Virus record (IMG/VR): IMGVR_UViG_3300032332_001507
Span: 1-64,000 of that record
From: a virus
Taxonomy: Duplodnaviria > Caudoviricetes
DNA length: 64,000 nt
Strand: one strand, 5' to 3'
Part shown: piece by piece, positions 9,838 through 53,173 of the stretch
Layout: every line of letters starts with the position of its first letter
How positions within the stretch are numbered: the stretch's first letter is position 1
Made by a program: the position numbers and the translations under genes
The notes under the pieces: generated by a model
What the model saw: only the letters and a program-made list of their open reading frames with translations
Told to the model about the DNA's origin: nothing
The model's database searches: none

Positions 9838-10251
9838 ATGATTAAACTAACTAGCTTATTAAATGAAATCAGGGTTCTTAATCCGAATTCATATCAACGT
9901 GTCTTAGTGCGATACATAGATCACCATAATAAACCCGAGGATTGGGCTGACGATGGGGGAGCTTTAGCATATTTAGAATCACTTAAATCCTACCCTAAAG
10001 TAGGAACAGTAGAACAACTAGCATCCGCTATTAAAGAAATAGATGATACATTAACTGAATTTGCAGGCGAAGACCCAGGAATGTTCTTTCATGAAGCAGT
10101 AGTAACAGCATTAGAAGAAATAGTTTCTGATGACCCATCATTAAAACCAGCAGTAGATGAAGTATTAGTTGAATTACGTGAGTTATATGATGAGGAGGAA
10201 GACGAAGATGATGACGAATTTGGTTGGGCACATGATTATGACGAATATTAA
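9838..10251 (+). CDS. Hypothetical acidic protein with MIKL..LLNE leader
   Basis: N-terminal MIKLTSLLNEIRV; acidic C-terminus. Confidence 0.6.
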   Translation: MIKLTSLLNEIRVLNPNSYQRVLVRYIDHHNKPEDWADDGGALAYLESLKSYPKVGTVEQLASAIKEIDDTLTEFAGEDPGMFFHEAVVTALEEIVSDDPSLKPAVDEVLVELRELYDEEEDEDDDEFGWAHDYDEY

Positions 10252-10256
10252 AGACA

Positions 10257-10658
10257 ATGATTAAATTAACTAACATACTAAAAGAAATTACAGTAAATAG
10301 ACCATCAGCACCTACTGTATATAAACCTATACCTGAAAATGATTTATATAAAGTAAAAAATTTTCCTTCTGTTAACACAAAAGGGGATATTTTATCAAAC
10401 CCATATATCGTTGAAATACTTAATAAAATTATAGAAAGTACATATAATGAATCATTAGATCAATATCTGAACCACGTTAACCCAGAATACCAAACGAGAC
10501 AACTAGCATCTAAGATTTCTAAACTTAGACCATTCAAAACAGTATATATCTATCTTAGTGGAGACGGTACAATGTATTTTGTTAATTCTTTAGAAGAATT
10601 TTCAGCTGGGTATCAAACAGAAGAGGGTTGGGGAATTACAGGTTGGGAGCAAATATAA
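10257..10658 (+). CDS. Hypothetical protein with MIKL..ILKE leader
   Basis: N-terminal MIKLTNILKEITV, similar to preceding gene only in the leader. Confidence 0.6.
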   Translation: MIKLTNILKEITVNRPSAPTVYKPIPENDLYKVKNFPSVNTKGDILSNPYIVEILNKIIESTYNESLDQYLNHVNPEYQTRQLASKISKLRPFKTVYIYLSGDGTMYFVNSLEEFSAGYQTEEGWGITGWEQI

Positions 10659-10672
10659 ATTTATTTTAAATT

Positions 10673-10698
10673 AGGCTTGGGAAACTAAGCCTTTTTTT
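10673..10698 (+). terminator. Rho-independent terminator overlapping class A promoter
   Basis: AGGCTTGG-GAAA-CTAAGCCT followed by T-run. Confidence 0.75.
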
Positions 10699-10707
10699 GT
10701 ATATTCA
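10676..10707 (+). promoter_or_regulatory. Class A promoter
   Basis: CTTGG(10676)...TGTATATTCA(10698-10707). Confidence 0.6.
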
Positions 10708-10712
10708 CATAT

Positions 10713-11633
10713 ATGAAAGAAAATAGTTTATTTGTTGAGAAATACAGATCTAAAACATTAGATGAATATGTTGGTAATGAACAATTAAAACAAATTGTTG
10801 CTAAATATATTGCTAACAATGACTTACAAAACTTACTATTGTATGGTACACCTGGTACAGGTAAAACAACATTAGCTAAGTTAATTGTAAATAATTTTGA
10901 TTGTGACTACTTATATATAAACGCAAGTGATGAAAGGGGGATCGATACAATTAGAGATAAAGTTCAAGGATTCGCTTCAAGTGCTTCATTCAAACCTATT
11001 AAGATTGTTATTTTAGATGAAGCAGATTTTTTAACTATTCAAGCCCAAGCCTCATTACGAAATATTATTGAGACATACTCTCGTACTACTAGATTTATTT
11101 TAACATGTAATTACCTTGAACGTATCATCGATCCCCTTCAATCACGTTGTCAAGTATTAAAAATTACTCCTCCATCTAAAAAAGAAGTAGCAATGCATGT
11201 TGCTAGTATTTTAGATAAAGAAGAAATTAACTATGAACTATCTGATTTAGGGTTAGTAGTTAATAAACATTATCCGGATGTTAGAAAAATACTTAACACT
11301 TGCCAAGTAAATAATGTTGAAGGTACTCTTAAAATAGATAATACTGTTTTAACAGGTGGTTATAAAGATGCTCTATTAAAAGAACTTAAGTCACCATCTA
11401 AAACTAGTTTTAAAAACATCAGACAAATACTTGCTGATAGTAATTTGGATGATTTTGAAGACGTTTATAGATTCCTATATGATAGTTTAGACGAATATGG
11501 TAATAATGATCTAGCAAAAGCAATGATTGTCATTGAAATAGAAAGTTATATGTACCATGCTAACTTCAGAATCGATAAAGAAATCAATGTAATGGCTTTA
11601 TTAGCCTCAATTTTAAAAATTATAAACCAATAA
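10713..11633 (+). CDS. Clamp loader AAA+ subunit (RFC small / gp44-like)
   Basis: FVEKYR, GTPGTGKTT, INASDERGID, ILDEAD, SRC motifs. Confidence 0.93.
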   Translation: MKENSLFVEKYRSKTLDEYVGNEQLKQIVAKYIANNDLQNLLLYGTPGTGKTTLAKLIVNNFDCDYLYINASDERGIDTIRDKVQGFASSASFKPIKIVILDEADFLTIQAQASLRNIIETYSRTTRFILTCNYLERIIDPLQSRCQVLKITPPSKKEVAMHVASILDKEEINYELSDLGLVVNKHYPDVRKILNTCQVNNVEGTLKIDNTVLTGGYKDALLKELKSPSKTSFKNIRQILADSNLDDFEDVYRFLYDSLDEYGNNDLAKAMIVIEIESYMYHANFRIDKEINVMALLASILKIINQ

Positions 11634-11635
11634 AT

Positions 11636-11878
11636 ATGGAACAAACCCAACAACAGCTCAACGTTAAAGTTGATCCAAGCCAAACAGTGGCTATCACATC
11701 ACCAGAAGGTAATCATATCTTTGCTGAAGGTGTTATTTTGCGAAAGGTATCTAAGTTCTTAGCTGGTACAGCTGAAGACGCTATTATGCCAATCCCATGT
11801 TTTTATGATGTAAAAACATGTAAGGTATTAGTAGAAATGTTACCTAAAGAGTTTAGAAGTGAGTATGAAAATCTTTGA
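11636..11878 (+). CDS. Hypothetical protein
   Basis: ORF in replication operon. Confidence 0.6.
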   Translation: MEQTQQQLNVKVDPSQTVAITSPEGNHIFAEGVILRKVSKFLAGTAEDAIMPIPCFYDVKTCKVLVEMLPKEFRSEYENL

Positions 11879-12275
11879 TTGGCTCAATCAGATTACTTAC
11901 GATAAACAACCCTGGAATTCATTTACTGAGGAAGACAAGAAATCATTTGAACCATATATGATTCATCGCTTCCTCAGTATGAATCCTGAGTACATTGAAT
12001 TTGTAAATTTAGTACAGACTTTTCCATACACTGATAAAGAGAAAATATATAATATATATTTATATATGATACCTAGGGAAAAAATGTTTCTAAAATACAT
12101 TAAATCATCTTTAAAGAAAAAGCAAGAAAAATTGCTTGGGTATATAGCTTCTTATTATGAATGTTCTTTAGGAGAAGCAAATGAATATATTGATATTTTA
12201 AGAGAAAATGGTGTTAAAGACATTCTAAACAAAATGGGTGTTGATGAAAAAGAACAAAAAAAGTTATTAAAATGA
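11865..12275 (+). CDS. Putative clamp loader small subunit (gp62-like)
   Basis: IFDWLNQI, PYMIHRFLS, YYECSLGEA.EY pattern; next to gp44-like gene. Confidence 0.7.
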   Translation: MKIFDWLNQITYDKQPWNSFTEEDKKSFEPYMIHRFLSMNPEYIEFVNLVQTFPYTDKEKIYNIYLYMIPREKMFLKYIKSSLKKKQEKLLGYIASYYECSLGEANEYIDILRENGVKDILNKMGVDEKEQKKLLK

Positions 12276-12949
12276 AATTACTAAAAGTATTATTAGAAAT
12301 TTATAAAGAAGAATATGAATTAAATCTTAAAGAAGGTTTAATTAAAACTACTAATATAGGAAAAACTTTAAATATTTTAGAAAAAAAATATTCATCTAAA
12401 TTTATATTTACTAAAAGTAAAAATTCATTCTACATTAAAACATTTAGTACAGATATTAATACTTTATTAAACGGTATTATTAATGATGCAAATACTTTAG
12501 GATGGTTTCCTTCATTTATGGAAACTGAAGAGTATACTGGGAAATGGGATAAAAAATATTTTAAAAAAGGCGAAATTAAATTAAGATTTGAAGCTAAATT
12601 TGATGAAGAAGTAATTGAAAGAACACCTAAAATTCTTTACCATATTACTCCTACACAAAACGCTAATAAGATTTTAAATATAGGATTAGTACCTAAGTCA
12701 AGATCAAAAGCATCTTACCATCCAGATAGAGTTTATCTATCTAAAGATTTAGAAGATATAGAAAATTTAGGTGAAATGTTTTATCAAAAAACAGGAGTAA
12801 AAGATTGGTCTATATTAAAAATAGAAACAGATATGATTCCCGGGGATTATCTAAAATTATACACTGACCCAAATTATATTAATGGTTACTACACTCTAAA
12901 TAATATTCCTTCACACGCTATAGAAAAAGTAAAAGACATAAAATATTAA
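12272..12949 (+). CDS. ADP-ribosyltransferase-fold (Tpt1/KptA-like) protein with N-terminal leader
   Basis: LYHITP...ILNIGLVP...RVYLS...ILKI...NIP pattern; leader MKLLKVLLE...LKE. Confidence 0.55.
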   Translation: MKLLKVLLEIYKEEYELNLKEGLIKTTNIGKTLNILEKKYSSKFIFTKSKNSFYIKTFSTDINTLLNGIINDANTLGWFPSFMETEEYTGKWDKKYFKKGEIKLRFEAKFDEEVIERTPKILYHITPTQNANKILNIGLVPKSRSKASYHPDRVYLSKDLEDIENLGEMFYQKTGVKDWSILKIETDMIPGDYLKLYTDPNYINGYYTLNNIPSHAIEKVKDIKY

Positions 12950-12953
12950 AATA

Positions 12954-13151
12954 ATGGACAGTATTGTAAAATCAGTTATAAAACAATTTGAAGAACGTAG
13001 CATTAAAGGTAAAGAAAAGTATGGTACTGATTTAGATAGAACTGATCTATCTTTAGTAGAATGGATTGAACATGCTAAACAAGAGCATATGGATGCTATA
13101 TTGTATCTAGAAAAAATCAAATGGACAATCCTTCAAGAAGAACAACAATAG
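12954..13151 (+). CDS. Conserved-looking small phage protein (helical)
   Basis: GKEKYGTDLDR.DL...WIEHAKQEHMDAILY. Confidence 0.55.
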   Translation: MDSIVKSVIKQFEERSIKGKEKYGTDLDRTDLSLVEWIEHAKQEHMDAILYLEKIKWTILQEEQQ

Positions 13152-13154
13152 ATT

Positions 13155-14087
13155 GTGAGTAAAAGAACACCGTTCATAGTAAGAACGATCAGGAATCATA
13201 CTCCTCAAGAAATTAACTATGCGAGTCAAAAAACGATTTCGTATAGCCAATTTTCTATCTATAATGAATGTCCTCATAAGTGGAAATTATTATACAAAGA
13301 TGGATTACAAGAATATCAACCTACAATCCATACTGTATTTGGAACCGCTATGCATAATAGTATCCAACGTTATATTACTATGATGTATGAAGAAAGTACT
13401 GCATCTGCTGATAGATTTGATTTAGAAGGTTTATTTGAAGAAGAATTTGGTAAGACTTATAGAGAAGAATACGCTAAAAACAAAAAGACCCATTTTAGTG
13501 ATCCGGTTGAAATGAGAGAGTTTTATGATGACGGAATTAACATTATAAACTACTTTAAAAAAAATAAAGGTAAATATTTTAGTAAACGAGGATGGCACTT
13601 AATAGGATGTGAGTTACCAATTGTTTTAAACCCAAATCCACAATATCCAAGTATATTGTATAAAGGTTATCTTGACTTAGTCTTGTATAATGAAGACACA
13701 GATAGGCACAAGATAATCGATTTTAAAACATCTACTAGAGGTTGGAATGCGGATACTAAAAAAGATGAAAGTAAGCAATTTCAATTGCTGTTCTATAAAG
13801 AATATTATAGCAAACAATATAACATTGATAAAGATAATATTGATGTTGAATTTGTTATTTTAAAACGAAAAATTTGGGAAGAAAGTGAATTTAAACAAAG
13901 TCGAATTCAAGAGTTTGCCCCACCAGATGGAAAAATTAAAATGAATAGAGCTATGAACTCAATGGCTAACTTTATAGACCAATGTTTTAATAGTGATGGT
14001 ACATTTAAAGACACTAACCATCCTATAGTACCAAATAAAAATTGTCAATGGTGTCCGTTTAATAATACTGAATTTTGTAACAAGTAG
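13155..14087 (+). CDS. PD-(D/E)XK exonuclease, Cas4/AddB-like with Fe-S cysteines
   Basis: ISYSQ...CPHKW, FGTAMH, GYLDLV, IIDFKTS, QLLFY, CQWCPF...C. Confidence 0.85.
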   Translation: MSKRTPFIVRTIRNHTPQEINYASQKTISYSQFSIYNECPHKWKLLYKDGLQEYQPTIHTVFGTAMHNSIQRYITMMYEESTASADRFDLEGLFEEEFGKTYREEYAKNKKTHFSDPVEMREFYDDGINIINYFKKNKGKYFSKRGWHLIGCELPIVLNPNPQYPSILYKGYLDLVLYNEDTDRHKIIDFKTSTRGWNADTKKDESKQFQLLFYKEYYSKQYNIDKDNIDVEFVILKRKIWEESEFKQSRIQEFAPPDGKIKMNRAMNSMANFIDQCFNSDGTFKDTNHPIVPNKNCQWCPFNNTEFCNK

Positions 14088-14097
14088 TTCTTTGTAT

Positions 14098-14106
14098 ATA
14101 TTTATA
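14098..14106 (+). promoter_or_regulatory. Class B motif heading the glycan operon
   Basis: ATATTTATA upstream of ATG 14121. Confidence 0.55.
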
Positions 14107-14120
14107 TATAAATAAAAGCT

Positions 14121-14306
14121 ATGAATAAAAAGGATATGACACTAACAAGTGTAAAAGTGCAGACCGATTTGTTCGAAGACTTCAAGTTAGAATGTGTAAA
14201 ACAAAAATTCTCTTTACAGAAACTTGTAGACCGAACAATTCATTTGTATCTTACAGACAATGAATTTAAAAAATCAATTCACAATCACAATAATTTAAAT
14301 CGATAA
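14121..14306 (+). CDS. Ribbon-helix-helix-like small DNA-binding protein
   Basis: LTSVKV strand followed by two helices (DLFEDFK..., SLQKLVDRTIHLYL). Confidence 0.55.
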   Translation: MNKKDMTLTSVKVQTDLFEDFKLECVKQKFSLQKLVDRTIHLYLTDNEFKKSIHNHNNLNR

Positions 14307-14316
14307 AAAAAGTTTT

Positions 14317-15753
14317 ATGAATCAAAGTTTTGGTTACCTTCCTCAAAATGAACGGAAGAAGATCTTACTAATCTGTGATGACATTAGAGTACACTCAGGT
14401 GTAGCAACTGTCGCTCGAGAATTAGTAGTAAACACAGCTCAACATTTTAACTGGGTAAATGTTGGAGGAGCAATCAATCACCCAGAAGTAGGTAAACGTT
14501 TAGATTTAAGCGCAGATACTAACACTAATACTGGATTAACTGATAGTTCGATCATTCTATACCCAAGTAACGGATATGGGGATGCTAGCATGATTAGACA
14601 ACTAATCCAAATAGAAAAACCTGATGCTATTTTCTTAATTACTGATCCAAGATATTTTATTTGGTTATTCCAAATTGAAAATGAGATTAGAAGAAAAATG
14701 CCTATTATCTATCTAAATATTTGGGATGATTACCCAGCTCCAATGTATAACAGACCATATTATGAGTCATGTGATGCTTTGTTAGCTATTTCAAAACAAA
14801 CTAAAAATATCAATGAATTGGTATTGGGTGATAAAGCTAAAGGTAAAATTATTGAATATGTACCCCATGGTTTAAATGAAAATATTTTTAAACCACTTGA
14901 TCAAAATGATGAACAATTAAAGTCGTTTAAAAAAGGTTTATTTAAAGGTAAAGAATATGATTTTGCTCTATTTTTTAATTCAAGAAATATTCGTCGTAAA
15001 CAAATTCCTGACGCAATGTTTGCTTATAAAATCTTTATTGATTCATTAACTGAGGAACAAGCTAAAAAATGTGTTTTTGTTTTACATACTCAAGTAGTAG
15101 ACGATAATGGAACGGATTTAGCAGCAGTACAAGAAATGCTATTTGGTAGTGATAATAAATATAATATTATTTACTCTGACAAAACATTAGATCCAAACGG
15201 AATGAATATGTTGTATAACAGTACTGATGCTCAAATTTTATTAACTAATAATGAAGGTTGGGGATTAAGTTTAACTGAGGCAATTTTAGCAGGTAACCCA
15301 ATTATTGCAAACGTAACTGGGGGAATGCAAGATCAAATGCGTTTTAGTAAAAAAGGTAAATGGATTGATTTTGATGCTGAGTTTCCTTCCAACCATACTG
15401 GTAAAATCAAAGAACATGGTGAATGGGCGTTCCCAGTATATCCAACTAATAGATCAATTCAAGGTTCTCCATTAACACCATATATTTGGGATGACAGATG
15501 TAATGCTGAAGACGCAGCTGAACAAATTATGAATGTTTATAAATTGTCTAAAGAAGAAAGAAAAGCACTAGGCCTTAAAGGACGCGAATGGGCTTTATCA
15601 GATGAAGCTGGTTTTACAAGTGTAAATATGGGTAAAAAAGTAATTACTACCTTAGATAAATTATTTAAAACTTGGAAACCAAGACAAAAGTATGAACTTA
15701 TAAATACAAATGAAGTTAAAGATAAAACAGCACCTCACAAATTAGTATACTAA
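14317..15753 (+). CDS. GT-B glycosyltransferase (GT4-like)
   Basis: RNIRRKQ, NEGWGLSLTEA..AG.PIIA motifs. Confidence 0.85.
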   Translation: MNQSFGYLPQNERKKILLICDDIRVHSGVATVARELVVNTAQHFNWVNVGGAINHPEVGKRLDLSADTNTNTGLTDSSIILYPSNGYGDASMIRQLIQIEKPDAIFLITDPRYFIWLFQIENEIRRKMPIIYLNIWDDYPAPMYNRPYYESCDALLAISKQTKNINELVLGDKAKGKIIEYVPHGLNENIFKPLDQNDEQLKSFKKGLFKGKEYDFALFFNSRNIRRKQIPDAMFAYKIFIDSLTEEQAKKCVFVLHTQVVDDNGTDLAAVQEMLFGSDNKYNIIYSDKTLDPNGMNMLYNSTDAQILLTNNEGWGLSLTEAILAGNPIIANVTGGMQDQMRFSKKGKWIDFDAEFPSNHTGKIKEHGEWAFPVYPTNRSIQGSPLTPYIWDDRCNAEDAAEQIMNVYKLSKEERKALGLKGREWALSDEAGFTSVNMGKKVITTLDKLFKTWKPRQKYELINTNEVKDKTAPHKLVY

Positions 15754-15759
15754 ACAGTT

Positions 15760-33279: not shown

Positions 33280-34211
33280 AAATTTTATATTTAACAGACA
33301 TAAACTATAATGGTGTGACGTCTGGTTTCCAAATGGGTCCTAGACCTCCTATGAGTTGGATATCAGGACTAAATTCATATCATTGTAGTTATTCAAATAT
33401 AGATAATATTCCATATGATAATTTTGACATAACAATATTGGGATGTCTTCATGAAAATGTAGACATACTAAATATAGATATAATAAATAAAGTTAAAAAG
33501 ATATCTAAAAAACTACTATTTCAGCATGATAGTGATCACAGATATTTTTATAAAAATAATAACATATTGCGTAGTTATATGTTAAATTTTATTATTATAA
33601 ATGTAGATGGAATATTAACTCACAATGATTTAGATAAAAAATATTACGAAAATTTATATAGAAAACCATGTTTTCATCATAAGCAACTACTATTAGACAT
33701 TTACAATCAGTTAGAACTACCTAATGTGAAAGAAGGTTTTGTATTGGGAGGGGTAGAAGATAGATATGGAACACTAGATGGTTATATGTTACTTCAAGAT
33801 TATCCACTAGAAAAAATATACCATTTTGGAAATACAAACACACAAATTCCTAATCTAAATGTAATTCCAAATGACTTTGACTATAAAAACTTCAGCCAAT
33901 CTTTAACTAAATTTAAAATAGCCCTTAATCTAACTCCTTTAGCAATAGGAGGTTCATTCCCACTACAGTGTGCTATGGTAAAAACTCCATGCATTGGATG
34001 GGATAATTCAAATCCCCATAAAGAATGTTTTCCTGACTTAGTTGTTGAATATGGTAATTTTGAAGAATTAAGGTCAATTCTAAACAAACTGACAAGTGAT
34101 TCTGAGTTCTATAATCATGTAGTTGAAAACGCTCGTGATACATTTATCAAAAATTTCTCTTCAGTAGAAAAATATAAAGAAGATATGATTAAAATTTTTA
34201 ACCAAATTTAA
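33276..34211 (+). CDS. Putative GT-B glycosyltransferase
   Basis: GSFPLQCAMVKTPCIG C-terminal GT-B-like motif. Confidence 0.5.
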   Translation: MKILYLTDINYNGVTSGFQMGPRPPMSWISGLNSYHCSYSNIDNIPYDNFDITILGCLHENVDILNIDIINKVKKISKKLLFQHDSDHRYFYKNNNILRSYMLNFIIINVDGILTHNDLDKKYYENLYRKPCFHHKQLLLDIYNQLELPNVKEGFVLGGVEDRYGTLDGYMLLQDYPLEKIYHFGNTNTQIPNLNVIPNDFDYKNFSQSLTKFKIALNLTPLAIGGSFPLQCAMVKTPCIGWDNSNPHKECFPDLVVEYGNFEELRSILNKLTSDSEFYNHVVENARDTFIKNFSSVEKYKEDMIKIFNQI

Positions 34212-34217
34212 AAACAA

Positions 34218-35036
34218 ATGGATGATATTTCAATATTTGGTGGAACAGGATTTGTAGGATCAGTATTTCATAAAAGATACCCAAACTCAATTGTTATGGG
34301 TAGAGATGAAACAAATCCTATTACTAACAATGTTTTGTATTTAATAAGTACTGTTGACAACTACAATGTATTAACTAATCCTCACATTGATATAGAAACC
34401 AATTTAGTCCACCTAATGAAGGTACTTGAGAACTGTAAAGATAGAGATATCACATTCACATTTGTCAGTTCATGGTTTGTGTATGGTAAAACAGAACTAC
34501 CAGCAAACGAAAATTCAATATGTAATCCTAAAGGATTTTATTCTATAACTAAACATACCGCTGAACAACTGTTAGAATCATATTGTAAAACATTTGGAAT
34601 TAAGTACAAAATTATTAGATTAGGAAATGTAGTAGGAAAAAGTGATAATAAAGTATCTAAAAAGAAAAATGCACTTCAATTCTTATTAAATGAAATAAAA
34701 GAAAATAATAAAATAAATTTATATAATAAAGGTCAATTTTACAGAGATTATATAGACGTTGAAGATGTAGCAGATGGTATTAAATTCATTATAGATAATG
34801 GCAAAAACAACGAGATATATAACCTGGCATCTGGGTTACCAATACTATTTAAAGATATTATTGACTATGCTTATGCTCAATTAAACTCAACAAGTGAAGT
34901 AGGAGTAATGGAACCAACTGATTTTCATAAATTAGTTCAAGTTGAGTCTATGTATCTTGATACTACAAAATTAAATAATTTAGGTTTTAAACCTTCTAAA
35001 AATATTTACCAAATAATAGATAATTTAATAAAATGA
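34218..35036 (+). CDS. NAD-dependent epimerase/dehydratase (SDR)
   Basis: GGTGFVG, SSWFVYG, YSITK, RDYIDVEDV. Confidence 0.85.
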   Translation: MDDISIFGGTGFVGSVFHKRYPNSIVMGRDETNPITNNVLYLISTVDNYNVLTNPHIDIETNLVHLMKVLENCKDRDITFTFVSSWFVYGKTELPANENSICNPKGFYSITKHTAEQLLESYCKTFGIKYKIIRLGNVVGKSDNKVSKKKNALQFLLNEIKENNKINLYNKGQFYRDYIDVEDVADGIKFIIDNGKNNEIYNLASGLPILFKDIIDYAYAQLNSTSEVGVMEPTDFHKLVQVESMYLDTTKLNNLGFKPSKNIYQIIDNLIK

Positions 35037-43429: not shown

Positions 43430-43447
43430 TCAATATTTATTAGTATG
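43396..43447 (+). repeat. 52-bp direct repeat, copy 1 (thyA 3' end + class B motif + ATG)
   Basis: ACACCCAACAATTAAAGCACCTTTATCGAATTGATCAATATTTATTAGTATG; 49/52 identical to 44833-44884. Confidence 0.9.
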
Positions 43448-44152
43448 ATACATAAATTGGTTACAATAGTGATACCTTGTAAGAATGAAGAATTATACAT
43501 TGGTGAAACTTTAAAATCTATATCCAATCAAATTGGAGTTAATAAATTAAGAGTTATTATAGCAGATGCTAAATCAACTGATAACACTAGACAAGTAATT
43601 ACTAAGTGTCAAAAACAATTATCAAATTTAAGAATTGAAATAATTGATGGAGGACCTGTAGCAGTTGGAAGAAATAGAGGAGCTGAATTAGTAACTACAC
43701 CTTATGTTCTATTCATAGATGCAGACACTGAATTAATAGAACCAGATATATTATTATCAGCTGTTGATAAATTAGATGATTACGAATTAGTGACTTGTAA
43801 AGTCACAAGTTCAGTTAATACCTTTAAATCAAAATTAATATTTAAGTCATTTAATATTATAAGAAAATACTTTATGACTAAACCCTTTTGTACAGGAGTA
43901 TTTTTCTTAACCAGCATAGAGTCATTTAAACGATTTGGAAGATTTGATGAGACTGTTACTACTAGTGAAGATTATTTATTAAGTCGACAATATCCTTTAA
44001 AAGAGTTTTGCATATTACCTAAACATGCTACTCAAGATGATAGACGGTTCAAGTATATGGGGTATAGTAAGTTCTTAAAAATGATGTTCACAAATTATCT
44101 TAATAGAAACAATATTGAATATTTCCGTAGAGATATAAATTACTGGAAATGA
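43445..44152 (+). CDS. GT2 glycosyltransferase
   Basis: IVIPCKNEE, IADAKSTD, GRNRGA, FIDAD, FDE...SED. Confidence 0.88.
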   Translation: MIHKLVTIVIPCKNEELYIGETLKSISNQIGVNKLRVIIADAKSTDNTRQVITKCQKQLSNLRIEIIDGGPVAVGRNRGAELVTTPYVLFIDADTELIEPDILLSAVDKLDDYELVTCKVTSSVNTFKSKLIFKSFNIIRKYFMTKPFCTGVFFLTSIESFKRFGRFDETVTTSEDYLLSRQYPLKEFCILPKHATQDDRRFKYMGYSKFLKMMFTNYLNRNNIEYFRRDINYWK

Positions 44153-44884: not shown

Positions 44885-45160
44885 GAAAATGAAACTAAAG
44901 TAAGTAGTTATGGTGAAACATTCTTAAGTAAACTTAAAGAACAGTCATTTACTATTATTATTTTAGTTGGTATAATGTACTATCAAAACACTCTGTTTAA
45001 TAAGCAGATGGATGAATATAGACAAATGATTAAGGAAAAAGAGGAGTTAGTGCTAAAACTAACTGATGAGGAACGTACTCGATTAGTTGAACGTGAGAAG
45101 TATTTAATTGGACAACGAGATATGTTTATAGAAGACCTTAAAGAAAGAGCAAACAAATAA
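44882..45160 (+). CDS. Single-TM coiled-coil protein (holin-like)
   Basis: FTIIILVGIMYY TM then charged coiled coil; class B motif upstream. Confidence 0.5.
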   Translation: MENETKVSSYGETFLSKLKEQSFTIIILVGIMYYQNTLFNKQMDEYRQMIKEKEELVLKLTDEERTRLVEREKYLIGQRDMFIEDLKERANK

Positions 45161-45167
45161 TATTTAT
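45159..45167 (+). promoter_or_regulatory. Class B motif
   Basis: AATATTTATTAGTATGA, identical 17-mer at 43432 and 51910. Confidence 0.65.
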
Positions 45168-45171
45168 TAGT

Positions 45172-45420
45172 ATGAAAAAATCTGAACTAAAACAATTAAT
45201 TAAAGAGGCTATTGTTGAAATAGCTAGCCATGATATTGATATGGCTTTAAAATTCATCCAAAATGAATTACCTGGACTCGGTGCTAAAAAAGAAGATAAC
45301 TTTATTATTCTTAGATCCAAACCAGATATAGCTCAATTAAAAGTATTAGCTAAACTTATTAGTGGTAGAAAAATAGGACCCCACCCAGAAAAACCAGGGG
45401 TAACTAGTATAAAATTTTAA
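45172..45420 (+). CDS. Hypothetical protein with MKKSELKQLIKE leader
   Basis: Leader nearly identical to 51923 (MKLDKLKQLIKEEI). Confidence 0.6.
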   Translation: MKKSELKQLIKEAIVEIASHDIDMALKFIQNELPGLGAKKEDNFIILRSKPDIAQLKVLAKLISGRKIGPHPEKPGVTSIKF

Positions 45421-45665: not shown

Positions 45666-46135
45666 TGGAATTAATCACAACTTACATCTGTAAGAAAGGA
45701 GACATTGGTGTTCATGACAACATGTTTGGTGGTACCATTATGTCTTTGATTGATGACGCGGCTGCGGCTTATGTAGCTCAAATCTGTGACACACAACGAG
45801 TTGTAACTCTAAAAATTGATGAATTAGTTTTTAAAAAACCAGTCAAAGTAGGAGCTATTCTTAAAATATATGGTAGTGTAGTTGAGTTCGGAAATACCTC
45901 AGTTACAGTGGAGATAGACGTCAGAAAACATAATGTGTATACAGGCGCCCAAGAAACAGTTACCCACACTAAAATCGTCTTTGTTCGCATTGATGATGAA
46001 GGTAAACCATTACCAATACATCAATTTGTTAAAGAGAGGTATTGGGAGCGAATGAAAATACACGGTAAGGGACTACTCGATGCTAAGGAGAAAGGTACAG
46101 ATATTTATAATAAAAAACAACTACTCAATGGCTAA
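45665..46135 (+). CDS. Hotdog-fold acyl-CoA thioesterase (YciA-like)
   Basis: NMFGG..MSLIDDAA, VVT, FKKPVKVG, GNTS, VFVRIDDEGKP. Confidence 0.85.
   Translation: MELITTYICKKGDIGVHDNMFGGTIMSLIDDAAAAYVAQICDTQRVVTLKIDELVFKKPVKVGAILKIYGSVVEFGNTSVTVEIDVRKHNVYTGAQETVTHTKIVFVRIDDEGKPLPIHQFVKERYWERMKIHGKGLLDAKEKGTDIYNKKQLLNG
46101..46109 (+). promoter_or_regulatory. Class B motif
   Basis: ATATTTATA within 3' end of thioesterase, before ATG 46128. Confidence 0.55.
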
Positions 46136-46805
46136 AGACTTTAATGTATATAAATGGCGTCGTAATTATTTAAACGAAAACGAAGACTTAGAATCACTTA
46201 AAAAACTTCCTTTTGACCAAGCTCTTAAAGCGTACTATGGTGAATCAGAACCAACCACAATGGAAAAAGGAATATTTTTTGATTTATACTACGGTGCTCC
46301 TGGTTTAAATGAAGATAGTAATCTTCCTGCTGGTGCTGAAGGTGATCCTAACATATTTGGGGGTAATGAGCCTAGAATGCAGAAAGGTAAAGTAGCCTTA
46401 GGTAATGTAACTCCGGTTGTTCAACACAGTGGAGAATATTTACTTTTTGATGAAAGTACTAAACATTACATATACACTTTAGATGATGCATTTAATAGTA
46501 TACTTGATACTCTTGAAGATTATCTAGATGTAGCACAAGAAAGATATGAAGACGAAGACGGACCATATTCTTCAGCATCTGAAGACTGGAGAGATTATAT
46601 TAGTGGTGGAGATGTTTTAAAAGCATTAGCTAGCTACATTAATGATGATAAGGCTGATATAGCTTGGAATTTAGATGAATTTGAAAGTGGAGAGTATCCA
46701 TTTTTGTTAATCACTAAAGAAAATATGGAAGAAGTAAAACCAGCTGTTCCTTCAAAATTCATTGAAGTAATCCAACGACTAAATAATCTACAAGAAGGTA
46801 GATAA
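46128..46805 (+). CDS. Hypothetical acidic protein with N-terminal ...YLNE leader
   Basis: Start re-assigned to MAKDFNVYKWRRNYLNE; further LNE/LQE sites. Confidence 0.6.
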   Translation: MAKDFNVYKWRRNYLNENEDLESLKKLPFDQALKAYYGESEPTTMEKGIFFDLYYGAPGLNEDSNLPAGAEGDPNIFGGNEPRMQKGKVALGNVTPVVQHSGEYLLFDESTKHYIYTLDDAFNSILDTLEDYLDVAQERYEDEDGPYSSASEDWRDYISGGDVLKALASYINDDKADIAWNLDEFESGEYPFLLITKENMEEVKPAVPSKFIEVIQRLNNLQEGR

Positions 46806-46807
46806 TA

Positions 46808-46839: not shown

Positions 46840-46843
46840 CAGC

Positions 46844-47814: not shown

Positions 47815-47819
47815 AAGTT

Positions 47820-48017
47820 ATGAATGATTATTATCTAGAAAAAGCAAAAGACACAGTCTTAAAAAGTACCATCAGTGAAATTACTGAATTAATTGAGGAT
47901 TTAGTAAGGGAAATTGAAAAATTAGAGTACGAAAATGAAAAATTCGAAAATCGAATTATTGAGCTTGAAGGAGAACTCATGGAAAAGGATGAAATGTTGG
48001 AAAATTTAAATAAATAA
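47820..48017 (+). CDS. Coiled-coil hypothetical protein
   Basis: Heptad-rich sequence. Confidence 0.55.
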   Translation: MNDYYLEKAKDTVLKSTISEITELIEDLVREIEKLEYENEKFENRIIELEGELMEKDEMLENLNK

Positions 48018-48020
48018 ATT

Positions 48021-48272
48021 ATGGCAGATTTTAGTAAACAATGGGTCGAGTTAAATGACTCGGAAATGGGATGGGATTTTGATATTGAAGCGATTGCCGC
48101 TGACATGAAACCCGGAACAATCAATCCTTATTACATTTGTGAAGGCTTCGGCTCAGTAGCAATTGGTAAGGATGAAAATGGACAAGTACATTTAGCAATA
48201 GCAACAGGTGTATTTGGAGATGAGGGACATGAAGTAAATTGGAAAACATTAGAGGAGGTACTACATGGATGA
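48021..48272 (+). CDS. Hypothetical protein
   Basis: MADFSKQW...ICEGFG. Confidence 0.55.
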   Translation: MADFSKQWVELNDSEMGWDFDIEAIAADMKPGTINPYYICEGFGSVAIGKDENGQVHLAIATGVFGDEGHEVNWKTLEEVLHG

Positions 48273-48480
48273 TACATTAATGTCATTATATGATTACTTA
48301 GGTAAAGCAGCTGGATTAAAATTAGGTGAGGAAGTAAATAAAGCAGCTCAATTAAGAGATATACCTCCTTATTTACGTCAAGTAAGTAATCCAAAATATG
48401 AGGGTAAAGTAATGTTATATCCAAAATGGTTTTTAGATGAATTCTTTAAAAAAGAAGATGACGATGAATTACCATTCTAA
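48265..48480 (+). CDS. Hypothetical protein with SSB-like acidic DELPF tail
   Basis: SLYDYLGKAAG...EDDDELPF. Confidence 0.55.
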   Translation: MDDTLMSLYDYLGKAAGLKLGEEVNKAAQLRDIPPYLRQVSNPKYEGKVMLYPKWFLDEFFKKEDDDELPF

Positions 48481-48488
48481 TATTTATA
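48479..48488 (+). promoter_or_regulatory. Class B motif
   Basis: AATATTTATA before 48513. Confidence 0.6.
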
Positions 48489-48512
48489 GGTAAATTATCT
48501 ATAGATTAAGAG

Positions 48513-49124
48513 ATGACAGATACAATTTGGGTTGCTGTAATAGGGGGTATAATTGGCCCTATTATAGTTCTAACAAGTAAGTGGTACCTAGACAATAAGT
48601 TAGGTAAGAAAAAGAGAGATATGGTTACTGATGCCTTAGAAGTAGGTGAGCAAGTAACAACTAAGTTAGACCAAATAAGAGAAGATTATGAGGCCGACCG
48701 TGTATGGATTAGTCAATTCCATAACGGCGGCCACTTTTATCCTACAGGAAAAAGTATAGCTAAGTTCTCTATATTCTATGAAACAGTAACCCCAAGTGCT
48801 TCATCACTTCAGTTAACACTTAAAAATATTCCTGTAGCTTTGTTTTCAAAAAGCTTTAATGAATTATCAAGTGAAGGAGCAATTGCTATTTCTGATTTTG
48901 AAGACGAGACTATAGCAACATTTGGATTAAAATATTTTGCAGCCGAGTATGGAACTAAATCTCAATACTTATTTGCTATTAAAAACTTTGAAGGTAAATT
49001 TATAGCTATTATGGGTGTTGATTACACAACTGAAAAGCATAGATTGAAAGCTAAAGAAATTGAAGACCTTGTTCACACTTCCATCGCTCTAGGTGGAGTA
49101 TTATCTAATCACTTAAAATCATAA
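48513..49124 (+). CDS. N-terminal TM + GAF-like domain protein (putative holin)
   Basis: TM 5-22; ADRVWISQFHNG...SIFYE...FIAIMGVDY GAF-like pattern; precedes putative endolysin. Confidence 0.55.
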   Translation: MTDTIWVAVIGGIIGPIIVLTSKWYLDNKLGKKKRDMVTDALEVGEQVTTKLDQIREDYEADRVWISQFHNGGHFYPTGKSIAKFSIFYETVTPSASSLQLTLKNIPVALFSKSFNELSSEGAIAISDFEDETIATFGLKYFAAEYGTKSQYLFAIKNFEGKFIAIMGVDYTTEKHRLKAKEIEDLVHTSIALGGVLSNHLKS

Positions 49125-49129
49125 AACAC

Positions 49130-49720
49130 ATGAATTATTCAAAAGACAAAATTGAATCAGCAGTTAAAGCCAAAGGTTATGTTTGGTTTGAAGGCGCAAA
49201 AGACTTTGACGTTAACATCGTTGGAGTAAGAAACTCAGATACTGGTAATGCAGTTACAAATGTATTTGATGATCGCATCACAGTATCGTATAAAGAAAAT
49301 GGTAACTGGGTTTACAACGAGTGGATCATCACTACTGACCCAGGTAAAAAAGGTGTTATGGAATACCATAACGCAGCGGGTGTTGCTCGTTTAGTAGAAG
49401 GCCAATATCGTGGTTCACACATGTTAGGTTTACATCAAGGTAAATATGAAGCATTAAGACAAAAAGATAATGTTAAAGTTTATCGTGATGCAAATCGTGA
49501 TATGAAATATGATGAAAACAAAATCCAAGAAGGTGTATTTGGAATTAACATCCACAAAGCAGGTGAAGATTCAACTTATGTTGAAAACTGGTCTGAAGGA
49601 TGTCAAGTGTTCAAACGTGCTAAAGATTTTAACGCGTTTATGGAAATCATGAGAAAAGCAGCTGCTGTTCATGGTAACTCATTTACTTACACTTTGATTG
49701 AAAGTGCTGATATAAAATAA
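49130..49720 (+). CDS. Putative endolysin, L,D-transpeptidase (YkuD)-like peptidase
   Basis: FGINIHKAG...WSEGCQV (His...SxGC catalytic motif), NIVGVR, FDD, TTDPG. Confidence 0.65.
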   Translation: MNYSKDKIESAVKAKGYVWFEGAKDFDVNIVGVRNSDTGNAVTNVFDDRITVSYKENGNWVYNEWIITTDPGKKGVMEYHNAAGVARLVEGQYRGSHMLGLHQGKYEALRQKDNVKVYRDANRDMKYDENKIQEGVFGINIHKAGEDSTYVENWSEGCQVFKRAKDFNAFMEIMRKAAAVHGNSFTYTLIESADIK

Positions 49721-49747
49721 ATTATTTTTAAATATTTTAGTAGAAAG

Positions 49748-49779
49748 TTGGGTCTTCGGACCCTTCTTTCGTATATTTA
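49748..49779 (+). promoter_or_regulatory. Class A promoter with embedded terminator hairpin
   Basis: TTGGG(49748); GGGTC-TTCG-GACCC hairpin 49750-49763; CGTATATTTA 49770-49779. Confidence 0.75.
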
Positions 49780-49803
49780 CGGCATAATAATAAAATTAAA
49801 GTT

Positions 49804-50154
49804 ATGATTGAAAAATTGAAATTACACAACGAAACAGAGTTATGGCTTGAACCAGACGTTGCAACTCAAACTGTAGATGTTTTTCTATATGATATATATA
49901 ATGAAACTAAAACACGTTTAGTAACGTGGCAAGGCAATAAAGGTATCCCAGGTGGTGCTTGGACCAGTAATCATTTTGGTCATAAAAATACATTTTTTAA
50001 CATTGTAAAAGAGTATAAAAATAAATTTACTCGTAGTTTTAACAAATGTAAAGAATTTAATAACACTAATGGTGAGACTAAGGATGGACTATTATTACAA
50101 TGGAATTGCTTGAAACGTAGAGTGAATATCAAAATTCATAAATTAACACGATGA
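49804..50154 (+). CDS. Hypothetical protein
   Basis: ORF track. Confidence 0.55.
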   Translation: MIEKLKLHNETELWLEPDVATQTVDVFLYDIYNETKTRLVTWQGNKGIPGGAWTSNHFGHKNTFFNIVKEYKNKFTRSFNKCKEFNNTNGETKDGLLLQWNCLKRRVNIKIHKLTR

Positions 50155-50387
50155 AAAAATTAATATTATTATTAAGTTTATGTTCATTTACTTTAGCACA
50201 ACCAAATGAACCTAGAACAGCTAAAGCAGTAGCAATGGTTCAAGTAGCACCTGATCAAGACCCATATGTTAAAGTATACTTTGCTTGGATTGATAGTTTA
50301 ACAGATCCAAATGAACATTTAGATACATCAATAACATATCATCAAGATTCACTTCCTAAAATAGGAGATATAATTCAAATAAAATGA
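50151..50387 (+). CDS. Small secreted protein
   Basis: MKKLILLLSLCSFTLA signal peptide. Confidence 0.55.
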   Translation: MKKLILLLSLCSFTLAQPNEPRTAKAVAMVQVAPDQDPYVKVYFAWIDSLTDPNEHLDTSITYHQDSLPKIGDIIQIK

Positions 50388-50764
50388 AAACATTAATATT
50401 ATTAAGAGGATTACCTGGAGCAGGTAAGTCAACATTCGCTAAGACGTTGGGAGGTATCCATATCGAAGCTGACCATTATTTTATGAAGGATGGTGAATAT
50501 AAGTTTGATGCTTCTAAACTAAAACAAGCACATGAACACTGTAGAACCAGTACTGAAGGCTGGATGATGGAAGGATATAATATAGTAGTATCCAACACAT
50601 TTACTCAGGAATGGGAAATGGATGCTTATTATGAGTTGGCTAAAAAGTACGGATATCGAGTATATTCGATTATTGTAGAGAATAGACACGGTGGAGTGAA
50701 TGAGCATGGTGTACCTGCAGATAAGTTAGAACAAATGAAAAATAGATTTGAAATAAAGTTGTAA
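50384..50764 (+). CDS. P-loop kinase (AAA_33, polynucleotide kinase-like)
   Basis: LRGLPGAGKST, EADHYF, VSNTF, HGVP. Confidence 0.85.
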   Translation: MKTLILLRGLPGAGKSTFAKTLGGIHIEADHYFMKDGEYKFDASKLKQAHEHCRTSTEGWMMEGYNIVVSNTFTQEWEMDAYYELAKKYGYRVYSIIVENRHGGVNEHGVPADKLEQMKNRFEIKL

Positions 50765-50765
50765 T

Positions 50766-51911
50766 ATGGAAAATAATAACTCAGTGTGCTACGTAGCACG
50801 TATAAACGAAATTAAAGAAATACTAGGAGCAGATAATATCGAACAAGCTGTTGTCGGAGGATGGAATTGTATTATCCAAAAAGGACAATACGCTGAAGGA
50901 GGACTAGTTGTAATAGCAACTACAGATGCAGTCATACCACAAGACCTGTCAGATGCCATGAATGTGACTAATTACTTACGTAAAGGCCAGCGTGTACGTA
51001 CTGTTAAGTTGAGAGGAGTGTATTCTGAGTGTTTGATTATTCCACTCAACATAGCATCAAAGGTGACTGGGTATGCTAATACAAAATGGGATGAAGGAGA
51101 GGACATGATGGACGTGTTGAAGATCTTTAAATATGAACCACCTGCAGTACAAATACAATTATCTTCAGGTCGTAAGATTAGATATCATCAAAATCCAAAC
51201 TTCACAGTGTACCACAAGTTTCCTAACTTGAAGAACGTAGCTGGATTGTTTACTGAGGAAGACAACGTACAGATCACTCGTAAGTTACATGGAACCAATG
51301 CTCGCTATGGTATTGTTAAGAAGTCAAAGCTGTCCTTATGGGATAAGGTTAGGAAGTTCTTTACTGGTGATCCATGGATTGAATATGAGTACGTATATGG
51401 ATCGCATAACGTAGAGAAAGGTTCAGACTCACAAGGTTTCTACTCAACAGACGTTTGGAGAGAAGTAGCTGATAAGTATGATCTTAAAGAGAAGATGTGG
51501 CATTTGGCTAAGGTAGTGCACTCGATTGAGTACATAGGATCCGGTATCGTACTATATGGTGAGATATACGGTCCTGGTATCCAAAAGAACTACGACTACG
51601 GAATGAAGGAGTTGGAGTTTGCTGGATTTGATATTACCCTTGATGGTGAATACCAAAACGTATTCAGAACAAGGCACCTTATTGAAAGCGCAACATTGCT
51701 ATTACGTCATGTACCTGAGTTGTATGTTGGTCTATGGTCTCAAGAGATCCAAGACAAGTTTACATTCTACAACTTCATTGAAGGAACCAAAGTACCACAT
51801 GAAGGTATTGTAATCAAACACGTAAGTGGAAAGAGGGAGAAGGTAGCTAAAGTAATTAACCCGGATTATCTTATCTACGGAGAGAAACATGATGTAGGGG
51901 ATTCACACTAA
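50766..51911 (+). CDS. RNA ligase, DRB0094/Rnl2 family
   Basis: GADNIE N-domain, RTVKLRGVYSE, KLHGTN (motif I), YGEIYG.GIQKN, FDI, HEGIV, KVINP.YL. Confidence 0.88.
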   Translation: MENNNSVCYVARINEIKEILGADNIEQAVVGGWNCIIQKGQYAEGGLVVIATTDAVIPQDLSDAMNVTNYLRKGQRVRTVKLRGVYSECLIIPLNIASKVTGYANTKWDEGEDMMDVLKIFKYEPPAVQIQLSSGRKIRYHQNPNFTVYHKFPNLKNVAGLFTEEDNVQITRKLHGTNARYGIVKKSKLSLWDKVRKFFTGDPWIEYEYVYGSHNVEKGSDSQGFYSTDVWREVADKYDLKEKMWHLAKVVHSIEYIGSGIVLYGEIYGPGIQKNYDYGMKELEFAGFDITLDGEYQNVFRTRHLIESATLLLRHVPELYVGLWSQEIQDKFTFYNFIEGTKVPHEGIVIKHVSGKREKVAKVINPDYLIYGEKHDVGDSH

Positions 51912-51918
51912 TATTTAT
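51910..51918 (+). promoter_or_regulatory. Class B motif
   Basis: AATATTTAT(TAGTATG). Confidence 0.65.
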
Positions 51919-51922
51919 TAGT

Positions 51923-53173
51923 ATGAAATTAGACAAACTAAAGCAACTAATAAAAGAGGAAATTGATAATACTTTCCTAAATGAAAAAGTAGGTGTTCCT
52001 GATAATATCACTACTGTAGCATCTCAGGTATTTCAAGGATATATGGATTTTCTCCAATCATATCCTGATGATATGGATATTACCGATATAAATGGTGGTC
52101 CAACAATCGATAACTCAGGTAAAGGATTTGATATAGCAGATTTACATTTAAATAGCATTTACATTGGTACAGAACTTATACCTCATAGTGAATTAGCATT
52201 TGGTGGGATGGCTGTTCCTAGTGTTCAAAAATTTGCTCCTAATTCTAATTTAAGAATGCTTCCTCCTAAAGACTTAAGCCAATTTGAAGATGTAAGCATT
52301 AGATTAATTATAGCTACTCCTCCTGTAGTTCCAATTGAAGAATTAATGCTTTTCTTATTATCCGAAAAACCAGAAATTGTTAGCTCATTCGCTCATGAGT
52401 TAAAACATTGGTATGATGGATATAAAAATATAGGAGGTTCTAAAGCAAAAGATCGAGCCCAATACCATATGTCTACCCGTGCTAGTTTTGGAGAAATAAC
52501 CCCAATAAATGATTTCTTCTTTGCTTTATACTTTATTTCAGGAATAGAATCATTAGTAAGACCATCTGAGTTAGCAAGTGAGATGGAAATTAAAGGAGTA
52601 ACTAGAAAAGAATTTTACGATTTTTTAACTCAAAGTAAAGTATTTACTAAATTAAAAAGTATTAGAGATTGGACATATGATGGATTTAGAGCTGAGCTTA
52701 AAAACTATATTCCTCAAATCAAAAGTATATTAAGATTTGCAAGTGTGCCTATAAGAGGAAAAAATGAAGATCAACTTATAGATGACATTCTTACATTAGT
52801 ATTAGTAAATGCTGTTAACTGGCACTCTAGTGAGTTAGCTCAAATAGTCTCTAATCCTCAAAGTCTCAGAGACATGTTAGATTCACTGCTTGGGAAGCCT
52901 ACTGTGTCAGATGAAGATACAAAGGCATTTAATAAACAAATAGATAATATTCAAAGATTTGGGAAGGATTATGAAAAATATTTTAAGTATAATGAAAAAC
53001 TATTTCGTATGTTAGCTGATGATACTATAAAGAGAATATCTAAAACATATTCTTTAATTCCAAGTGATGAAGAATTAACTGAGGTTAAAATAGCTAATCG
53101 TGAAGCATGGTATAAAGCGTATGGGTACAAGGGAAAGTTAGACACCAAGCTGAAACGCCCTAAATTAAAATAA
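51923..53173 (+). CDS. Putative zincin metalloprotease with MKL..LKQLIKEEI leader
   Basis: FAHELKHWYD (HExxH) with downstream Glu; leader family. Confidence 0.55.
   Translation: MKLDKLKQLIKEEIDNTFLNEKVGVPDNITTVASQVFQGYMDFLQSYPDDMDITDINGGPTIDNSGKGFDIADLHLNSIYIGTELIPHSELAFGGMAVPSVQKFAPNSNLRMLPPKDLSQFEDVSIRLIIATPPVVPIEELMLFLLSEKPEIVSSFAHELKHWYDGYKNIGGSKAKDRAQYHMSTRASFGEITPINDFFFALYFISGIESLVRPSELASEMEIKGVTRKEFYDFLTQSKVFTKLKSIRDWTYDGFRAELKNYIPQIKSILRFASVPIRGKNEDQLIDDILTLVLVNAVNWHSSELAQIVSNPQSLRDMLDSLLGKPTVSDEDTKAFNKQIDNIQRFGKDYEKYFKYNEKLFRMLADDTIKRISKTYSLIPSDEELTEVKIANREAWYKAYGYKGKLDTKLKRPKLK

Follow-up and report, generated by a model that had tools for sequence, protein, structure and literature searches.

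Interchangeable N-terminal leaders as candidate head-loading tags in a clade of large, mostly uncultured T4-like phages

Introduction

In phage T4, the first ten residues of the internal protein IPIII suffice for packaging, and the prohead protease gp21 cuts after L/I-x-E (PMC9026906, PMC3012670). The internal proteins of T-even phages are diverse save for this conserved capsid-targeting sequence (CTS), which may be a general way to vary the cargo of the capsid (PMC9026906, PMC3012670). Here we analyze a stretch of 64,000 nucleotides (the window) that constitutes the first 64 kb of the 94,177-bp IMG/VR contig IMGVR_UViG_3300032332_001507 (Duplodnaviria; Caudoviricetes), in which a first-pass annotation had pointed to six otherwise unrelated proteins, encoded between positions 9838 and 53173, that begin with a short leader reminiscent of the T4 CTS. 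We show that such leaders are real features of these and many related phage genes: they are restricted to N-termini, selected at the amino-acid level, nearly absent from prokaryote genomes, modular and interchangeable. On balance, we consider that they probably function as prohead-targeting propeptides, as a counterpart of the T4 CTS, although this reading is by no means assured.

Methods

The N-termini of the 148 open reading frames (ORFs) of the contig were compared all against all with ungapped BLOSUM62 scores over 12 residues, using internal segments as a control. For the two main leader types (A and B, defined below), patterns were back-translated with every synonymous codon allowed and used to scan IMG/VR. 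A type B hidden Markov model (HMM), built only from leaders of other phages, was run on the six-frame translations of the contig and of its relative G001. Genes are designated here by the position of their start codon. Two relatives recur in the comparisons: G001, which shares 51 of the 148 contig ORFs in synteny, and the cultured Flavobacterium phage immuto (vB_FspM_immuto_2-6A, NC_055915), grown on Flavobacterium sp. LMO8. The latter matches 39 contig ORFs with a mean identity of 48% and 78 G001 ORFs with a mean identity of 46%.

Results

Two groups of leaders, besides N-termini of the Rossmann kind, stand out in the comparison of contig N-termini. The type A leader, MIKLxx[IL]L[KN]E, heads genes 9838 and 10257, which score 37 against each other, and the type B leader, MKxxxLK[QK]LIKE, heads 45172, 51923 and, beyond the window, the contig gene at 76072, with scores of 34-37. 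The background of these scores has a mean of 1.2 and a standard deviation of 6.2, the internal-segment control reaches a maximum of 28, and the only other comparable scores belong to Rossmann GxGxxG N-termini. The type C leader, FN[VI]xKWxxx[YF]L[NK]E, is carried by 46128 and was recognized only by comparison with relatives; in the 148-ORF comparison neither 46128 nor 12272 shows significant N-terminal similarity to the other leaders, and the N-terminus of 12272 bears a weak, loose likeness to type A. All six ORFs and N-termini of the first-pass annotation are where it placed them, but one leader common to the six proteins is ruled out by these separate groups: three leader types are present, and the N-terminus of 12272 is specific to its own family. 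The accompanying claim that similarity stops after the leader holds, since BLASTP detects nothing past residues 14-21.

The leaders end in LLNE, ILKE, LIKE or YLNE at residues 7-17, all types thus sharing a terminal hydrophobic-hydrophobic-x-Glu, and (L/I)-x-E, the original definition, is too weak to count as evidence by itself. A loose version of the motif, [LIFM][LIV][KRNQA]E with its Glu at residues 8-13, shows strong N-terminal enrichment: the contig has 5 occurrences (0.93 expected), G001 has 17 (1.24 expected) and immuto has 6 (1.4 expected). The TerL N-terminus, MSQDLKQIIREEYIK..., in G001 (33326-34897) and immuto (119017-120591) resembles type B, so that loose motif searches have limited specificity. 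A fourth recurrent N-terminal motif, type D (...F-x-[RK]-M-Q-K-L-A-G-[IL]-x-x-E), occurs at G001 123350, at immuto 111675 and in a further relative, G003 (L128), where it heads a 281-residue gene product encoded between the protease and scaffold genes.

Database scans locate the two main leaders at gene starts. IMG/VR contains at least 122 matches to type B, nearly all of them at the initial ATG of a reading frame, and for type A true ORF starts make up 126 of 139 among the matches listed. Each of the best eight type B HMM matches falls on the initiating Met of a + strand ORF, the remainder scoring below 7 bits, and the best six matches of the type A HMM in the six-frame scan are likewise all first-Met positions of + strand ORFs. 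By comparison, 596 Gb of prokaryote genomes yield 41 matches to the type B pattern, 35 of them internal, out of frame or in very short frames; the other six are plausible starts, and three of these lie on a single phage-like contig binned into a metagenome-assembled genome. Chance would give about one match in this collection, an estimate that assumes uniform base composition and that AT-rich sequence would raise. A tblastn search of cultured phages with the 21-residue consensus leader returned no match, the query being too short or masked; in immuto the exact type A DNA pattern is absent, and the type A HMM gives one degenerate copy.

What is conserved in the leaders is the peptide. Their codons vary, with all six Leu codons of both codon families in use and Ile, Lys and Glu codons varying too, while the amino acids stay fixed, and position 6 of type A, left free in the pattern, is D or N in 96 of 137 leaders among the matches listed. 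This combination of codon variation and preferences at free positions argues for selection on the peptide rather than on DNA or RNA. Recent DNA duplication of the 5' ends, considered as a source of the likeness, is ruled out by coding parts that differ at synonymous sites. Orthologues of 51923 keep the leader almost unchanged down to an overall identity of about 33%, and it diverges only in the most distant one (28%); Glu21 and Gly24-Val25-Pro26 are invariant in all of them, and H158-E-L-K-H162 is invariant or nearly so.

The leaders are combined with many different proteins. Once stripped of their initial 22 residues, 143 leader-bearing proteins form 50 clusters (BLASTP, 1e-4), mostly singletons; among the tagged bodies are P-loop kinases, NT5C/HAD nucleotidases, DUF5872 proteins and many without assigned function. 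Three observations indicate real swapping. A body of the form GTLYHFT...SLTRDKN is preceded by leader A in G001, L246 and L241 but by leader B in L073; E-values between these bodies are 1e-17 to 1e-24. In immuto-like phages, five unrelated bodies of 62-169 residues begin with a type C leader (M-x-x-N-F-D-I-H-K-W-x3-[FY]-L-K-E), and all are encoded in the slot that separates the prohead protease gene from the scaffold gene. And where two type A genes lie between GroEL/g14 and gp44 here, G001 has a different gene, of type B. The earlier proposal of a modular, swappable leader is thereby borne out, by one body with A or B and by type C on five bodies in one head-module slot. Similarity of the GTLYHFT bodies to the Tpt1-like domain of 12272 (E 0.09-0.2) is only suggestive of homology.

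Relatives suggest a link between the leaders and head maturation. All checked carrier records with a completeness of 57% or more encode a Peptidase_S77 protein, the family of T4 gp21, as do several smaller fragments, and the capsid proteins of five complete carrier genomes (160-299 kb) are 54-70% identical to that of G001; this kinship therefore makes the tags a trait of one clade. The head module of G001 runs in the order TerL, portal, three genes without assigned function, S77 protease, putative scaffold and gp23-type capsid protein. Its scaffold begins MATNRDLLKE-AIADAK, and seven further relatives are alike in having a hydrophobic pair, Lys-Glu and A-[IV]-A. The resulting consensus of scaffold N-termini, M-x(2-5)-[LMF]-[LYFI]-K-E-A-[IV]-A, lies near the type B core LIKE-A[IV]. 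T4 itself (NC_000866) offers the same parallel between tag and scaffold, with CTS MKTYQEFIAE/A, gp22 MLKEQLIAE/A and gp24 MAKINELLRE/S.

The capsid proteins carry the motif at the corresponding site. At the position of the experimentally known T4 gp23 cut, ...LTE65/A66, the alignment places ...LVVE/ASSTG of G001 and ...IVSE/ANVTG of immuto, and a Glu is kept there in gp23-type proteins across the clade. Two checks that the first-pass annotation had called for gave a result in relatives: a candidate E-site of the capsid protein is present as VVE/A and VSE/A, and the prohead protease was located, though in the relatives only and not on the contig of the window. In G001 and immuto, most genes with the loose motif cluster directly upstream of the TerL-portal-protease-scaffold-capsid module. 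Candidate leader-bearing ORFs of immuto lie at about 81.5, 102.3, 102.9, 103.4, 109.9, 111.2-112.3, 113.2, 123.4 and 125.2 kb. In the AlphaFold2 model of 51923, residues 2-19 form a low-confidence helix detached from the folded body.

Gene 12272 (12272..12949, + strand), which follows the gp62 clamp-loader subunit, encodes 225 residues with the N-terminal helix MKLLKVLLE...NLKE-G. It has 241 homologues and is a widespread near-core gene; within the family, L3, L7, Y11-E14, L17, N18, E21 and G22 are invariant at the N-terminus. Given this conservation, the helix belongs to the family itself and is not a swapped-on tag. The AlphaFold2 model (predicted local distance difference test, pLDDT, 81) matches Tpt1/KptA structures in Foldseek, including 8tg3, 6e3a and 1wfx, with E 3e-6 to 4e-5, probability 1.0, some 125 aligned columns and a root-mean-square deviation of about 4, and there is a weak match to PHROG 5470 (RNA 2'-phosphotransferase, E 7e-4). 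The model thus confirms a Tpt1/KptA-like ADP-ribosyltransferase (ART) fold, as the first-pass annotation had suggested. H124, H150 and R153 are invariant in the family and R144 nearly so; the catalytic tetrad of Tpt1 is Arg-His-Arg-Arg.

Gene 51923 (51923..53173, +) encodes a 416-residue, virus-only protein that begins with MKLDKLKQLIKE-EIDNTFLNE-KVGVP, a type B leader, and whose HELKH motif is invariant. Its AlphaFold2 model (pLDDT 83.5) places the HELKH in a helix at residues 149-168. Foldseek gives a best E of 0.19 and VIA-align a Z of at most 5.9, to helical bundles, with no zincin or convincing match; Pfam, PHROG and PDB sequence searches found no match, and the ESM Atlas gives only unnamed viral clusters. 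Its earlier description as an HExxH protease is upheld for the motif, without fold or family support, and a protease role is a guess from that motif. A second HExxH family (...SYAHEMIH...) occurs on the contig (91356-92183), in G001 (14823-15266), where it has a leader-like start, and in immuto (107131-109854), where it is fused into a 907-residue protein annotated as NadR-like.

The remaining leader genes of the window lie on the + strand as well. Gene 9838 (9838..10251) encodes a very acidic protein of 137 residues with the type A leader MIKLTSLLNE-IRVLNP, scoring 20.2 with the type A HMM at the first Met of the ORF, and has no Pfam or PHROG family. It opens a two-gene tandem flanked by GroEL/g14 and the gp44 clamp loader and has nothing in common past residue 18 with the second gene, 10257 (10257..10658), which encodes 133 residues headed by MIKLTNILKE-ITVNRP (HMM score 20.7) and whose sole family match is a sub-threshold PD-(D/E)XK. 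The viral contig L196 (IMGVR_UViG_3300020727_000079) has three type A genes with the extended leader MIKL..ILNEIT[IV]NKP, as in 10257, and two of the three are in tandem, an echo of the 9838/10257 pair.

Gene 45172 (45172..45420) encodes a basic orphan protein of 82 residues with the type B leader MKKSELKQLIKE-AIVE and is the top type B HMM match, with 27.6 bits at the first Met of the ORF; its predicted mature part has an isoelectric point of 9.5, and a single-protein search of IMG/VR found no relatives. Gene 46128 (46128..46805) encodes a very acidic protein of 225 residues with the type C leader MAKDFNVYKWRRNYLNE, a type read from relatives. Because its homologues begin at MAKDFNVYKWRR, 46128 rather than 46080 is most likely the true start. 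Beyond the window, 12 kb past its end, the third type B gene of the contig (76072-76440; L004:12072-12440), not listed in the first-pass annotation, encodes 122 residues just upstream of a gp25-like baseplate gene. About 70% of the type B matches listed in IMG/VR are orthologues of this gene, and these have the promoter-like motif described below 4-6 nt before the ATG. Their N-terminus is a long helix containing two LxE sites; a disordered central region follows, and the C-terminal ...EGSSLPxGxxGLDQIMxLxN is conserved. When the six window proteins and ten G001 leader proteins were scanned against Pfam and PHROG, essentially no families were identified.

A promoter-like motif, ATATTTAT, begins 12, 12 and 27 nt before the start codons of 45172, 51923 and 46128 (45160..45167, 51911..51918 and 46101..46108, all +), and a one-base variant, ATATGTAT, at 9826..9833 (+) ends 4 nt before the start codon of 9838. 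The first of these copies is part of a 14-mer, TAATATTTATTAGT, that starts at 45158 and abuts the ATG, and the copy before 51923 lies inside the same 14-mer, there starting at 51909. The contig contains 28 copies of the motif on its + strand and 17 on its − strand, most of them 4-40 nt ahead of a start codon; the clamp gene, a glycosyltransferase gene and others are also preceded by it. The statement that four of the leader genes follow this motif is correct if the variant is admitted, but the motif is not specific to leaders.

In relatives, ATATTTAT precedes TerL, tail and baseplate genes, and in immuto CTATTTAT stands before the portal gene and ATATTTAT before TerL. Because of its position before portal, TerL and tail/baseplate genes, the earlier assignment of the motif as a late promoter is plausible, but the copies before the clamp and glycosyltransferase genes show that it is not specific. 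Its association with leader genes is modest (contig, 4 of 5, variant included, Fisher p 0.003; G001, 4 of 13, p 0.17). The copy at 12056, formerly assigned to 12272, is ruled out as its promoter, being inside the gp62 clamp-loader coding sequence. Another motif, TATATTTAC, precedes no leader gene, with about one such case expected, so its absence says little. A promoter-plus-start string, AATATTTATTAGTATG, recurs at 43432-43448, 45158-45174 and 51909-51925. The first copy heads a glycosyltransferase gene without a leader and the other two head type B genes, so the promoter module is not tied to the leader.

The contig has an estimated completeness of about 55% (CheckV) and a GC content of about 31%, with nearly every gene on the + strand. 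T4-type replication genes in the window comprise a family B DNA polymerase (3935-6520), a sliding clamp (6545-7270), the gp44 clamp loader (10713-11633) and the gp62 subunit (11859-12275). The polymerase gene is intact, unlike that of G001 (92383-95701; L134), which is split at about residue 570 into genes of 582 and 293 residues with a type B gene of 213 residues between them. A GroEL-like gene (7950-9566) is assigned from its N-terminal sequence and a match to the chaperonin gene of cultured phages; a GroEL fragment was the sole megablast match of 21 kb of the window against cultured phages. Baseplate genes resembling gp25 and gp6 lie outside the window, at contig 76.4-78.7 kb.

More distant relatives are the Microcystis phage Mel-JY01 and the Rhodothermus phage RM378, and because of these relatives, together with G001 and immuto, the host of the window phage is likely to belong to the Bacteroidota. 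In G001, QueC/QueD/QueE-like starts at 86-89 kb suggest, from N-terminal sequences alone, that it carries 7-deazaguanine synthesis genes as immuto does. In immuto DNA, G is fully replaced (PMC10516641).

Discussion

The reading of the leaders as prohead-targeting propeptides entails a defined sequence of events. An amphipathic N-terminal helix of 10-21 residues (types A, B and C here, and D in relatives) would mimic the N-terminus of the phage's own scaffold and dock the protein onto the scaffolding core during prohead assembly. A gp21-type serine protease (Peptidase_S77) would cut after the Glu of hydrophobic-hydrophobic-x-Glu, with a second cut-motif site often some nine residues further on and frequently followed by Gly, and the mature protein would remain in the head with the DNA. 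Core binding, cleavage and retention in the virion are steps that we infer from the gene sequences; ejection into the host and any anti-defence role would be the weakest step.

Several observations weigh against this reading. A literature search on immuto and Mel-JY01 found no virion proteome, cleavage or packaging data for the clade, and neither head genes nor a prohead protease were found on the 94-kb contig, which is about 55% complete, the protease being seen in relatives only. Right after the first Glu the leaders frequently have I, E or V, whereas small residues typically follow T4 cuts, and the T4 CTS (MKTYQEFIAE) shows no significant similarity to the leaders described here beyond a Met-Lys start and a hydrophobic-I/L-x-E end. 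The loose motif is also present on TerL and on the gp44 clamp loader, which are clearly not cargo. Several tagged bodies, such as P-loop kinases and NT5C-type nucleotidases, resemble ordinary enzymes of the cytoplasm rather than obvious virion cargo, and tagged genes occur in replication modules as well, one of them splitting the DNA polymerase gene of G001.

In one alternative, the leaders are docking helices for another partner or place, such as a replication or nucleotide-metabolism complex, a membrane assembly site, a chaperone (the phage GroEL) or a timed-degradation tag, their likeness to a protease motif being incidental. The resemblance of many tagged bodies to cytoplasmic enzymes (P-loop kinases, HAD/NT5C nucleotidases), the location of 9838 and 10257 between GroEL and gp44, the tagged gene inside the split G001 polymerase gene and the similar N-termini on TerL and gp44 all lend themselves to it. 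We nevertheless regard docking elsewhere as unlikely: it leaves unexplained why the tags copy the scaffold N-terminus, why type C occupies the slot between protease and scaffold and why the main cluster abuts the head module, and no known clamp-, membrane- or degradation-binding motif is seen on the tagged proteins. That the shared starts are mere chance, a likeness among K/E/I/L-rich helical N-termini in an AT-rich genome, is barely credible. A GC content of 31% does favour such residues, TerL and gp44 have similar strings, and 12272 and 46128 are not significant within the genome; yet the scores are far above both background and the internal-segment control, HMM matches occur at N-termini only, and the at least 120 type B matches in IMG/VR, nearly all true starts, compare with 41 mostly out-of-context matches in prokaryotes.

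The remaining alternatives place the constraint in nucleic acid. The shared 5' ends could be recombination joints of mobile gene cassettes, like the PeSL of T4-type phages, with no protein function, as might be supposed from the identical promoter-plus-start 14-mer at 45158 and 51909 and from tagged genes that occupy variable slots between conserved genes or, in one case, are inserted in the polymerase gene. DNA identity, however, does not extend past the ATG region, synonymous sites differ between the coding parts and the 51923 leader is kept as protein in orthologues to about 33% identity, so that shuffling may explain the spread of the leaders but not their conservation; as a full account we find it quite improbable. 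Bacteroidetes-type hosts lack Shine-Dalgarno sequences, and the leaders might instead reflect a constraint on mRNA or translation initiation, in which A-rich, unstructured first 10-12 codons would be selected as RNA. The promoter-like motif lies 4-27 nt from the ATG with no Shine-Dalgarno sequence visible, and the leaders are rich in AAA, GAA and TTA codons. We consider this very improbable given that the leaders use varying Leu, Ile, Lys and Glu codons for fixed amino acids, that most genes behind the same promoter motif lack a leader and many leader genes lack the promoter, and that the hydrophobic spacing and the terminal Glu are kept as protein features.

Taken at its widest, the prohead-targeting reading would mean that interchangeable tags copying the scaffold N-terminus mark several percent of the genes for head loading in a large, mostly uncultured T4-like clade (155-300 kb) that includes immuto and a Microcystis phage, among them genes for Tpt1-like ADP-ribosyltransferases, HExxH proteins, P-loop kinases and nucleotidases. 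We advance this extended version tentatively, as possible rather than probable. If true, sequence alone would name candidate proteins that enter together with the DNA in an abundant aquatic phage lineage of Flavobacteria and relatives, and would make legible an injected proteome far larger and more enzymatic than that of T4. The candidates, which include the Tpt1-like ADP-ribosyltransferase family and many proteins without known function, would be leads for host-takeover or anti-defence roles, and a scaffold-mimicking tag would be a handle to package reporter proteins in a phage of hosts other than E. coli. The cultured phage immuto makes the idea directly testable.

Among known systems, the T4 CTS of IPI, IPII, IPIII and the Alt propeptide, processed by gp21, is the closest: there, too, a short, scaffold-like leader with an (L/I)-x-Glu end heads unrelated, poorly conserved proteins. 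The lineage described here possesses, in relatives, homologues of gp21, gp22 and gp23 as T4 does, and T4 packages the ART-fold protein Alt. Unlike in T4, at least three or four leader types coexist, without sequence homology to the T4 tags, and the leaders are often bipartite, with two Glu sites about nine residues apart. Up to about 8% of the genes of a relative carry the loose motif, tagged genes are scattered in replication modules and several bodies resemble nucleotide-metabolism enzymes, which again departs from T4.

The polymorphic internal-protein locus of T-even phages (Repoila et al. 1994, cited in PMC3012670) holds different genes with the same leader in one slot, as the type C slot does here with five bodies. 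The slot described here differs in lying inside the head-morphogenesis operon and in its leader sequence. In the giant phages phiKZ and SPN3US the cleavage motif is S/A/G-x-E, as against hydrophobic-hydrophobic-x-E here. Many head-internal proteins of these two phages are cut after Glu by a gp21-related protease, with multiple redundant propeptide sites (PMC9026906, PMC5694885). The propeptides of their inner-body and ejection proteins are long, unlike the leaders described here, and do not form a short shared tag. The cargo-loading peptide of encapsulins is an analogous short, modular peptide that brings diverse enzymes into an HK97-fold shell, but in a non-phage system; it is usually C-terminal and binds the shell protein directly, uncleaved, without scaffold or protease. 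PeSL cassettes of T4-type phages have repeated promoter-stem-loop DNA, conserved as nucleotides, at their boundaries, whereas the DNA shared here is a promoter/start string of 14-17 nt and the leader codons differ at synonymous sites. The principle is thus not new, having been established by the work on T4; new here are the lineage and its tag sequences, the fact that several interchangeable, scaffold-copying types of tag coexist, and how many tagged genes there seem to be and how enzymatic they look.

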